This document shows, piece by piece, positions 15,401 through 16,875 of a stretch of 64,000 nt of DNA. Origin of the DNA: a virus; the IMG/VR virus record IMGVR_UViG_3300046337_000201, positions 1 through 64,000 of that record; one strand, written 5' to 3'. Position numbers and translations under genes: made by a program. The notes beneath the pieces are model-generated. The model was not told the origin of the DNA, did no database searches, and saw only the letters and a list, made by a program, of their open reading frames with translations. Position 1 is the stretch's first letter; each line of letters starts with the position of its first letter.

Positions 15401-16355
15401 GAATCCATCCATTGTATGAATCGTATATTACATAATTTCCTGAAGCTAAAGGATAAAACTCAGTAGCAGTAATTTGAGCAGCATTACAAATACTATCACC
15501 ACCTATGTATGTAATTGCAGCTATTGAACTACCACCTCCACTACAAACCTCACTAGAAGTAGCACCATATCTAAATAATTGAGGAAGTGTTGTTGTGGTT
15601 GTCGTACTCGTAGTTGTAGGAGCCGCAGTTGTTGTGGTTGTCGTACTCGTAGTTGTAGTTGTAGAAATAGGTGGTGTTATACTAGTTGTAGTAGTCGTAG
15701 TACTAGTTGTACTAGGACATACTAAAATAGATGATACACTACCTAAAGAATTTAATTGAACCGCTTGATTTTCTACATAATAATATTTAGTAGTATCTAC
15801 TACAATAGGAGTAGTACCTGAAGCATCAGTATAAAGTATTGTGCTTAATCCTAAAGTACCACTATAATAAACCCTAATATTATGAAGTCCACTTGTATTA
15901 GCAGCACATGCACTAGCTGCATCATTATAGCCTATAATAGAACCCACAATAGGATAATATAAAAGGCTATTAGCAATTAATAAAGTCGTTGTAGTTGTCG
16001 TAGTACTAGTTGTAGGACATACGCAAGTTTCTATTTGACCATATATGTTTATATCGTCTAATGTATATAAAAAAGTATCGGCTCCTATTGTTTGCGTACA
16101 AAAGAAACCAAAGCCTAAATTTGAAAAACCTTGTTGTAAACCTAATAAAGTACCATCATATGTATTAAGATATGTAATTCCATTAATAACGATATTCCAA
16201 CATCCACACCCTACATTTTCACTTGTAATATCCCATGTATACTTAGTTCTTGAATTGATTGAAGGATTATTTTCAGACAATAAAGGCACATCAATACTAC
16301 AATCATTGGTATTGTTGGTAATTACAAATTGGAGTAGTTCGTTTTTAGTTGGCAT
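12468..16355 (-). CDS. mucin-like Thr/Ser-rich multidomain spike or surface protein
   Basis: 1295 aa; Cys-bounded beta domains separated by poly-Thr/Ser linkers. Confidence 0.75.
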   Translation of the reverse strand: MPTKNELLQFVITNNTNDCSIDVPLLSENNPSINSRTKYTWDITSENVGCGCWNIVINGITYLNTYDGTLLGLQQGFSNLGFGFFCTQTIGADTFLYTLDDINIYGQIETCVCPTTSTTTTTTTLLIANSLLYYPIVGSIIGYNDAASACAANTSGLHNIRVYYSGTLGLSTILYTDASGTTPIVVDTTKYYYVENQAVQLNSLGSVSSILVCPSTTSTTTTTTSITPPISTTTTTSTTTTTTAAPTTTSTTTTTTLPQLFRYGATSSEVCSGGGSSIAAITYIGGDSICNAAQITATEFYPLASGNYVIYDSYNGWIQYNKPDGIGFNSMTRIGGGCSLCSSVTTTSTTTTTTTILVWYTLYNCLTGATETSAQYPNGTFFANDRVVYGGTLFFRVINVQYTDPGGIQWFVTGTGAFGCPTTTTTTTTLPPVAVSLSVSCNNVGGTYLGKVTATISGGNGVYEILAGYVGSLSTYVSAGTNPFVISSPTAPYDGTLGLRNTLGGSDQFIVQVRDSLGTVASQSTPISCITTTTTSTTTTTTTFAFNVNASLVSDYDACNNPEYTTQPLTGNGSNICDSTYVTLPSTITADMSDNQTIYLEQRVSGVFSVATYQRVGTTSIANRIVVCSACVPPSTTTTTSTTTSTSSSTTSTTTTTTTFAFNVNASLVSDYNACNAPEYTSQTLTGNGSNICDSTYVTLTPTLTADMGDNQTIYLEQRVSGVFSVATYQRVGTTSIANRIVVCSTCVPPSTTTTTSTTSTTSSTSSTTSTSSTTTTTTQPPITYSFTAVCVGLNQTFTLNSLGGGDGTTYYASTTTYPDPLSAAAGATSLVSGGTRTYSSQPNGTRYIYVTSGTRSAPPSGGTICTTTTTTSTTSTSTSSSTTSTTTTTTTFAFIVNASLVSDYNACNAPEYTSQALTGNGANICDSTYVTLTPTLTADMGDNQTIYLEQRVSGVFSVATYQRVGTTSIANRIVVCSTCVPPSTTTTTSTTSTTSSTSSTTSTSSTTTTTTQPPITYSFTAVCVGLNQTFTLNSLGGGDGTTYYASTTTYPDPLSAAAGATSLVSGGTRTYSSQPNGTRYIYVTSGTKQTTPSNGTICTTTTTTTTSSTSTTSSTTSTSSTTSTTTQPPIGYSFTAVCVGLNQTFTLNSLSGGNGTYYASTTTYADPASAAAGATSLVVGGSVTYSSQPSGTRYIYVTSGTRSAPPSGGSICTTTTTTSTTTTTTTAAPTTYKYIATDCNTSTTTIYSSTDGGLNGITIQTSSTCYSLVLTTKGTAVGSLPSYIVIAGCGFCGV
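13095..14350. repeat. near-identical tandem duplication, 699-bp period
   Basis: Identical antisense ORFs at 13269 and 13968 (offset 699); boundaries approximate. Confidence 0.85.
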
Positions 16356-16875
16356 TATTATCTTCTTTATCTACTATGTAAAAACAATAATCTTCAAAAT
16401 AATCTAATCCAACCGAGTGTTCTAACTCTTGGAAATTACTATCACCTGATATTGTTGCTCCATGATTACGCATTAGGTTTCCCAAGAATGCAGTATTAGT
16501 GTATATTTTTAGGAACAAAGTTTGACCTGGCAACATCGTAAACGATAATGAACTATTACCATTAAATGTTACTACTTCTTTTTCAGGATAGAAATACGCA
16601 GCACATTGAGCTTGATATGGGTCGATAGTAAATGGTAGTGAATGATTCACTTGATTACCAAAAGCATCAAAATCGGTATAGTAATATATTTGACCTACTT
16701 GGTCACAACTCGTAGAAGCAACATAGAAAAATTGAGCTTCATAATTAAAAGTCGTTAAACTTTGAACTATTTGGTTGTAATTAATAGGGGTTGTGGTATC
16801 ACCAAAGTCAAGAGGACACACCACCGATATATCGGCAACTGATACTTGTGTTACTATTGGTGTTAATATTGCCAT
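16345..16875 (-). CDS. capsid-protein paralogue (minor capsid or spike base)
   Basis: Shares DA.GNQ......TIDPYQ.Q and flanking pattern with 37304..37999. Confidence 0.6.
   Translation of the reverse strand: MAILTPIVTQVSVADISVVCPLDFGDTTTPINYNQIVQSLTTFNYEAQFFYVASTSCDQVGQIYYYTDFDAFGNQVNHSLPFTIDPYQAQCAAYFYPEKEVVTFNGNSSLSFTMLPGQTLFLKIYTNTAFLGNLMRNHGATISGDSNFQELEHSVGLDYFEDYCFYIVDKEDNNAN

Follow-up and report, generated by a model that had tools for sequence, protein, structure and literature searches.

At the vertex of PR772 and PRD1, the penton protein P31 is accompanied by the spike protein P5, whose N-terminal domain is a homologue of P31, and together they form a heteropentamer of three P5 and two P31 chains (PMC6750898). 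In HCIV-1, the penton jelly roll VP9 serves as a universal adaptor, and additional strands contributed by the spike pair with its strand G (PMC6414509). Here we describe a locus of an uncultured marine virus, IMG/VR record IMGVR_UViG_3300046337_000201, in which the gene for a 176-amino-acid (aa) protein, called A below, overlaps the start of a gene for a long, Thr/Ser-rich spike protein, and in which A is a paralogue of the candidate shell protein of the virus. A further point of comparison is donor-strand complementation in chaperone–usher pili (Fim, Pap), where the N-terminal strand of a partner completes the sheet of its neighbour and makes a very stable non-covalent link. The window, by which we mean the whole stretch of DNA that was analysed, covers positions 1–64,000 of a viral contig of 75,160 bp and about 31% G+C, which CheckV estimates to be 67% complete.

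On balance, we think it probable that A and the spike make up a two-protein attachment unit, in which A is the foot of the spike in the shell and a β-hairpin at the N terminus of the spike adds to or packs against A. We treat the two as one unit because they occur as natural fusions in both domain orders, because a segment has migrated between the two genes and because their synteny is conserved. The features on which the argument turns are listed here with the evidence used to delimit them.

16345–16875, minus strand: gene A, a 176-aa β-sandwich protein, paralogue of the shell candidate and probable spike foot, that is, a vertex or penton-like subunit (open reading frame (ORF), homology, protein family, model of the homologue P0140).
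37304–37999, minus strand: shell-protein (major capsid) candidate of 231 aa, the paralogue with which A is compared (translation, homologue search).
12468–16355, minus strand: spike ORF, 1295 aa (translation).
16345–16355, minus strand: A/spike overlap of 11 nt (ATAATAATGCCAACTAA), comprising the stop region of A and the start of the spike, with the spike in the +1 frame (sequence read).
16254–16355, minus strand: connector hairpin, spike residues 1–34, with strand β1 at about ELLQFVITN, strand β2 at about IDVPL, and a loop (alignment of fused relatives, strand positions from model residues 161–179, ranges of fold matches).
16011–16253, minus strand: adaptor domain, spike residues 35–115, a small α/β domain with strand β3 (KYTWD), more strands, a helix (LQQGFSNLG) and final strands, predicted to have a FliD D2/D3-like fold (profile search, BLASTP, VIA-align).
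12468–16010, minus strand: remainder of the spike, with poly-Thr/Ser linkers between repeated Cys-containing modules of two types in about three copies each (translation, tandem arrays).

A is a paralogue of the shell candidate

A stop codon immediately precedes the ATG of gene A, and the protein therefore has no hidden N-terminal extension. Residues 33–140 of A align with residues 109–213 of the shell candidate by BLASTP at 27% identity (E = 5e-6 in the pairwise comparison), over a region that includes the DAFGNQVNHSLPFTIDPYQAQ / DANGNQATKILTPTIDPYQQQ stretch, and when all 197 ORFs of the 75-kb contig were searched, each of the two proteins was the sole hit of the other (E = 6e-4). Profile–profile comparison with HHalign pairs residues 104–204 of the candidate with residues 29–129 of A (99.2% probability, E = 6.6e-20). 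Searches with profile hidden Markov models (HMMs) connect the A family and the candidate in both directions, at E = 2e-16 for the A-family HMM on the candidate of the window and at 2.5e-11 for the reverse, and the A profile, run against 1.8 billion representatives, recovers a distant member of the capsid family, P0272 (E = 1e-4). A is a true paralogue of the 231-aa shell candidate, with the homology confined to the core. An earlier note on this DNA had aligned 16345–16875 with the C-terminal part of the capsid candidate, and both BLASTP and HHalign bear this out.

The shell candidate, which we infer to be a capsid protein, begins with an acidic leader of about 57 aa, followed by two hairpins that bear N-x-S/T motifs and then by the core that it has in common with A; its alignment extends to the distant members P0272 and P0236. 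It has 1047 homologues at E ≤ 0.01, and the best 120 listed are 78–95% identical to it. A diverges much faster, and a word-based search found just four close homologues. Neither protein matches an entry in Pfam, PHROGs or NCBIfam, a search of PDB sequences with a profile of A plus the adaptor module returned no match, and the capsid candidate found none by tblastn in 50,697 phage records.

N termini of A and the spike

The earlier note had suggested that A lacks the first strands of the capsid candidate and that a similar pattern stands at the start of the spike. From the first strand (YIVTVSN) to the shared VTY helix there are 48 residues in the capsid candidate, 32 in A and about 24 in a typical member of the A family. 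This family, defined as 169 representatives at E ≤ 1e-3, consists mostly of proteins of 140–185 aa that start where A starts, and A is therefore not truncated for its family. A does go without the first hairpin of the capsid candidate, and to that extent the claim holds; its start is nevertheless the normal one for the family, and the model of a homologue, described below, has two N-terminal strands of its own.

The resemblance proposed for the spike is similarly divided. BLASTP found no similarity between spike residues 1–115 and the capsid candidate. Whole-profile HHalign, run with spike residues 1–118, selects the very pairing that the earlier note had expected from spike residues 8–25, joining capsid residues 59–79 to spike residues 8–29, but at an E value of 0.12, which is not significant, as is the value of 0.2 against the A profile. 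In a targeted comparison of sub-profiles, the N-terminal region of the capsid gave P = 0.008 against the spike hairpin and 0.12 against the N terminus of A itself. A strict motif of a strand plus N-x-S/T, with a background of 0.7 per 1000 aa, is common to the first strand of the capsid candidate and 8 of 11 spike-type hairpins, and it is found in 6 of 82 short A N termini. Taken alone, the likeness between the N terminus of the spike and the first strands of the shell protein is suggestive but short of significance.

Sequon-like N-x-S/T motifs recur in these segments, as TVSNAS and again TVSNVT in the first strand of the capsid candidate, ITNNT in the spike hairpin and IVNNS in a longer form of A that is introduced below. 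The virus encodes many glycosyltransferases.

Natural fusions of A and the spike module

Proteins in which A is naturally fused to the first ~115 residues of the spike, sometimes with a Thr-rich stalk in addition, occur in at least 11 diverse relatives. The order A domain, hairpin, adaptor is found in P0135, P0140, P0278, P0179, P0216, P0251, P0255, P0262, P0241 and P0271. The fusion proteins are 23–35% identical to one another, with the exception of the close pair P0140/P0278, and their modules align with residues 1–115 of the window spike. P0179 runs on into poly-Thr linkers, and in P0271 about 9 residues lie between the last strand of A and the hairpin. In P0220, a metagenomic protein of 265 aa and the sole representative of its kind, the hairpin and the adaptor domain come first and the A domain last, and either end of A can therefore take the module. 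Within the module, conservation is highest at the motif I/V-T/x-N-N-T, which lies in the connector hairpin, and the adaptor domain of the window spike is matched by the X-domain HMM at E = 2e-28.

In 36 of 148 A-family representatives, the place of the spike module is taken by a C-terminal tail-anchor transmembrane helix with a Lys-rich tail. The foot domain is therefore membrane-tethered in many relatives, which fits a membrane-proximal shell subunit. A metagenome scan with the A profile gave no match, nor did IMG/VR scans with the fused proteins P0271 and P0262, and one homologue search was dominated by poly-Thr words and gave just 6 proteins.

A segment that moves between the two genes

Relatives of the locus were retrieved through a conserved gene upstream of A, which yielded 67 IMG/VR loci.

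17940–18440, minus strand: 166-aa gene about 1 kb upstream of A, used as the synteny anchor and lying outside the A–spike unit (alignment, scan, PHROG match).

The anchor gene is 75–80% identical across three aligned relatives. Loci L022 and L027–L031, in which it is 58–72% identical, have the arrangement of the window, with a short A and, after it, a spike whose N terminus holds the complete module. In L027–L031 (for example L027:5984–6844 and L030:5978–6838), A and the spike share a reading frame, with just a TAA and one further codon between them (…YLIDQE, stop, NMAQKKEL…), and at the A/spike junction the natural fusion P0140 reads …KPKKELEEV…. To judge from these reading frames, the in-frame junction looks like a hot spot of fusion and fission, and it could allow low-level read-through.

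A sister clade (L001–L021 and P0129, on at least 14 IMG/VR contigs from many different metagenomes) has its chain break elsewhere. Its A is 223–224 aa long, with the hairpin and β3 fused onto the N terminus. Within the first ~54 residues of this long form, residues 10–51 are homologous to residues 3–45 of the window spike (35% identity, BLASTP E = 9e-6), HHalign gives E = 4e-6 for the same N terminus against the hairpin region of the window spike, and the clade's own spike has its first residue at the position that matches residue 52 of the window spike (39% identity, BLASTP E = 8e-11). When aligned under relaxed settings, the 223-aa form and the capsid candidate are colinear, and the segment that moved faces the first hairpin of the candidate. 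In a maximum-likelihood tree built from the A domain, all long forms fall in one clade (support 100/99) nested within the short forms, from which it follows that the long form is derived; as read from this tree, the arrangement of the window is the ancestral and widespread one and that of the sister clade is derived. Synteny in relatives, to which the earlier note had pointed as a check, speaks for A and the spike as one unit, in that the arrangement of the window recurs, fusions exist and a segment moves between the genes.

In the window itself, the first 11 nt of the spike gene are also the last 11 nt of A, as had been noted before, and an overlap of this kind is consistent with translational coupling of the two genes. 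A long A–spike fusion made by programmed frameshifting was considered and rejected, because ahead of the spike ATG the frame stays open for no more than 5 codons. The gene overlap, the natural fusions and the exchange of a segment constitute genetic evidence that A is physically coupled to the spike. Searches of Pfam, PHROGs and NCBIfam with the spike gave nothing beyond sub-threshold matches at chance level. The tandem arrays inside the spike (12680–14756, minus strand) have a period of 345–348 nt and consist of the two module types in about three copies each; some of the copies are 90% identical in DNA, which suggests recent duplication or recombination.

Model of a natural fusion

AlphaFold2 (AF2) run on the 176-aa A with 5 close homologues gave an unusable model, with a predicted local distance difference test score (pLDDT) of 37, and the ESM Atlas model of A was poor (pLDDT 0.33), with uninformative Atlas neighbours. 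The subject of AF2 modelling was then a homologue, the natural fusion P0140 (275 aa), with identities of 28% to A and 26% to the module of the window. Its alignment has 97 rows, 16 of which cover the module; three of these, read through from A into the spike in L027, L028 and L030, were required for a correct alignment of the spike fragments. The model has a mean pLDDT of 83.4 and a predicted template modelling score of 0.64. Strands in its A domain run over residues 2–9, 16–20, 35–46, 56–61, 67–72, 84–88, 100–106 and 111–122 (pLDDT 83–95), with helices at 25–31, 123–130 and 134–142. After a linker comes the hairpin, at residues 161–169 and 175–179 (pLDDT 81–89), followed by a low-confidence loop at 184–191 and the α/β adaptor domain at 192–275.

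About 25 VIA-align matches fall on the last domain; each begins within residues 190–200, and the hairpin is never included (Z 4.1–6.7 with 71–85 residues aligned in the best rows, where the tool notes that a Z under 8 may reflect only a common arrangement, frequent among unrelated small α/β domains). Among them are FliD D2/D3 and flagellin (Z 5.1–6.7) and insertion domains of phage sheath and baseplate proteins (Z 4.5–5.2); for the FliD-like matches to model residues 191–275, Z is 5.6–6.7 and the root mean square deviation (rmsd) is 2.9–3.6 Å over 82–85 of 85 residues. For the A domain, 17 of 23 single-domain β-sandwich matches reach residues 166–192. They are led by the alpha-toxin PLAT domain (Z 4.2–5.2, with 98–100 residues aligned within 31–180), and others are the diphtheria toxin R domain, DUF4466, DUF4425, ApaG, MD-1 and PHM. 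Jelly-roll matches of the A domain are weak (NPM1 at Z 4.0–4.1 with 90 residues aligned, the capsid domain of GFLV at Z 3.5), and for this reason we assign A to the predicted class of β-sandwiches, within which a jelly-roll topology is not established. Foldseek with the two-domain model found nothing significant in the PDB, and its three matches past E 0.001 in BFVD were uninformative, with TM-scores of just 0.10–0.16.

We place the hairpin with the sandwich of A because the A-domain matches usually include residues 161–180 and the adaptor matches never do. In the P0140 model, the hairpin appears to pack onto this sandwich, whereas the chain from β3 onward appears to be a separate and complete small domain. 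Since the hairpin goes with A and the third strand with the adaptor domain, a connector of ~45 residues would bridge the two, and the chain break can accordingly sit before the connector, as in the window, after it, as in the sister clade, or nowhere, as in the fusions.

A proposed attachment unit

These observations suggest the following arrangement. As a diverged copy of the most conserved structural protein, itself probably a single-jelly-roll shell protein, A would most likely lie within the shell, probably at the vertices, as the foot of the spike. The first ~115 residues of the spike would serve as an adaptor in two parts. In the first part, the hairpin (residues ~6–26, motif ITNNT) would add to or pack against the β-sandwich of A in trans, replacing the first hairpin that the shell protein has in cis. 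In the second part, residues ~35–115 would form a small FliD-D2-like domain, from which a Thr/Ser-rich, probably glycosylated stalk and the repeated distal modules would extend. Translation of A and the spike could be coupled through the 11-nt overlap. Donation of the hairpin by the spike to A is plausible from the model of the fused homologue.

A stronger version would have the anchoring hairpin of the spike be the capsid protein's own first hairpin, lost by the paralogue and supplied in trans by the spike. We regard this step as possible but doubtful. Should it be right, the vertex subunit would be a jelly roll completed by its spike, and the break in the polypeptide would be evolutionarily free, falling before the hairpin (window), after β3 (sister clade) or nowhere (fusions), or being permuted (P0220). 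The group would then offer a natural, multi-state example of strand-swapped coupling between capsid and spike, and would show how penton–spike fusions and fissions originate.

The split jelly roll of the earlier note survives in part. A and the N terminus of the spike do behave as one unit, the sister clade carries the segment on the paralogue, and the sandwich matches to the A domain of the model usually include the hairpin. What falls away is the idea of a visibly incomplete subunit, given that A has the normal length for its family and that the homologue model has eight or more strands; the first strands are matched weakly, and β3, the third strand to have moved, is part of the FliD-D2-like domain of the spike.

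Alternative explanations

Several results weigh against the attachment unit as drawn here, and some of them also form the case for the alternative that survives best, although we judge it unlikely. In that account A is a self-sufficient sandwich, and spike residues 1–115 are one independent domain that binds A surface to surface, without strand insertion; the domain would have been split only in the sister clade, where A carries the first three strands of the adaptor. With eight or more strands at pLDDT 83–95 in the homologue model, A may not need a partner to be stable. Only one clade separates the hairpin from the adaptor domain, the two are spanned by one HMM in every fusion and spike, and β3, which moved together with the hairpin, falls in the FliD-D2-like domain of the spike. 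Two further points concern the fold comparisons, namely that the hairpin is placed by the first and last aligned residues of weak matches (Z 3–5) to a homologue 28% identical to A, and that the best jelly-roll matches of A are only the low-scoring ones to NPM1 and GFLV given above. The similarity of the hairpin to the first strands of the shell protein is also weak (E 0.12; sub-profile P 0.008).

Surface binding, however, sits poorly with the fold matches, in which the FliD-like ones cover the whole domain without residues 161–180 while the sandwich matches of A mostly include them. It also has against it that a variable linker and the low-confidence loop (184–191) flank the hairpin, that the hairpin of P0271 follows so closely on the last strand of A, and that the 223-aa form is colinear with the shell protein.

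A second alternative, which we hold to be improbable, is that the module serves a tailed phage as an adhesin of the fibre or baseplate type, that the 231-aa protein is not a capsid protein and that A is a fibre-attachment adaptor, the head and packaging genes being in the unsequenced third of the genome or too divergent to detect. The earlier note had read the virus as tailless and membrane-containing. Several observations favour a tail. The CheckV estimate of 67% leaves room for missing genes, a point that counts against the attachment unit as well. The 166-aa neighbour at 17940–18440 matches PHROG 12032, 'short tail fiber protein', at E = 4e-31, and it is also present in two complete IMG/VR records of 68–71 kb (G004 and G005) that have no 231-aa protein. 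The adaptor fold resembles phage sheath and baseplate insertion domains (Z 4.5–5.2) as well as FliD. Against our own reading there is, besides, the putative packaging ATPase (38386–39210), which is recognized by its Walker A and B motifs alone and matches nothing in Pfam, PHROGs, NCBIfam or PDB sequences.

Set against the tailed-phage account is the lack of any match to Terminase_6N, TerL_ATPase, Phage_portal or HK97 Phage_capsid in the contig and three related records, one of which is 84 kb long and 90% complete. Among the 30 larger ORFs scanned (180–729 aa, all against PHROGs and 20 also against Pfam), none matches a terminase, portal, HK97-type capsid, tail-tube, sheath or tape-measure protein, and a single one, at 56889–57992, gives weak hits to tail-fibre and minor-tail families. 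Membrane tail anchors are present in a quarter of the A family, and the 231-aa protein is extremely conserved and abundant. That adjacency and overlap are mere operon packing, without interaction of A and the spike, is very improbable: genes in phage operons often overlap by a few bases, but independent fusions in both domain orders, migration of a segment between the two genes and synteny kept down to 58% identity of the upstream anchor gene all argue against it.

Other features of the window

Four consecutive paralogous large proteins (421–628 aa) are encoded at 24074–30209 (minus strand), with weak repeats of the 'antifreeze beta-roll' type. In two of them, the N-terminal 214 residues are 81% identical and the C termini differ, in the manner of swappable fibre heads. 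A 370-aa protein at 43293–44405 (minus strand) matches the chitin-binding peritrophin-A domain (CBM_14) at E = 7e-7, above the Pfam cut-off; this domain is unusual for a bacterial virus.

Two paralogous gene pairs, both on the minus strand, are inserted within the late/structural block. The pair 41492–42196 and 44421–45155 carries NUMOD3 motifs, which are typical of homing endonucleases, and the pair 21221–21979 and 22861–23595 is likened to it by appearance only. At 49340–61390 (minus strand), large proteins carry DUF2958, an AAA/MoxR-type ATPase domain, ART-PolyVal (the ADP-ribosyltransferase of polyvalent proteins) and DUF5661. Domains of these kinds are typical of injected or polyvalent cargo proteins in phages and conjugative elements.

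Comparison with known systems

Genomes of the lineage to which this virus belongs measure 75–85 kb or more. Public metagenomes are rich in homologues of the lineage's shell candidate, and the lineage has no recognisable tailed-phage genes; we found no published description of it. Identifying the small protein that holds the host-recognition spike is a first step towards mapping the particle and its host range. The four natural arrangements of the module, namely two separate genes, one fused chain, a fusion in permuted order and a connector carried by the other partner, amount to a ready-made complementation series, both for how spikes lock into capsid lattices and for the evolution of penton–spike fusions such as PRD1 P5.

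In FliD D2/D3 and in the insertion domains of phage sheath and baseplate proteins (6kty, 5h5v, 9cb9 and 7kh1), the likeness is to spike residues ~35–115 and is seen through P0140 residues 191–275 (Z 5.2–6.7, rmsd 2.6–3.6 Å, 71–85 residues aligned); with identities of just 8–14%, it justifies no functional inference. The parallel with the Fim and Pap pili is that the N-terminal strands of one protein would be added to the sheet of its partner, completing or extending it. It is a working likeness and not family membership: A has a full set of strands, unlike an Ig-like pilin that lacks its last one, and no chaperone is evident.

As in PRD1 and PR772, a small subunit of the capsid lattice and a spike would together form one vertex unit, here proposed from the genes. 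Fused relatives such as P0179 are one polypeptide, as P5 is, and the free A is comparable to P31. A penton-like N-terminal domain of the P5 type is found only in such fused relatives; the window spike has no copy of the foot domain, just a hairpin and an unrelated adaptor domain. A is, moreover, paralogous to a shell protein of single-barrel size and not partnered with a double-barrel one, and no sequence similarity of the module to P31 or P5 was found.

HCIV-1 and HHIV-2 (Halopanivirales) share with our proposal a single jelly-roll penton as adaptor and a single-barrel shell over a membrane (PMC6414509), both of which we infer here. They differ in that there is no detectable sequence relation, that the strand interaction proposed here comes from the model of a fused homologue, and that the genome here is several times larger and its host presumably bacterial. 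In the present group, furthermore, the anchoring segment lies on either partner or is fused, which is not reported for HCIV-1 or HHIV-2. If the hairpin does insert into a capsid-like sandwich, the strand augmentation of HCIV-1 would extend to a new and much larger group of bacterial viruses. The module would work like the anchoring of PRD1/PR772 and HCIV-1 without having a sequence in common with them, and what it adds is that the gene position of the connector varies by lineage.

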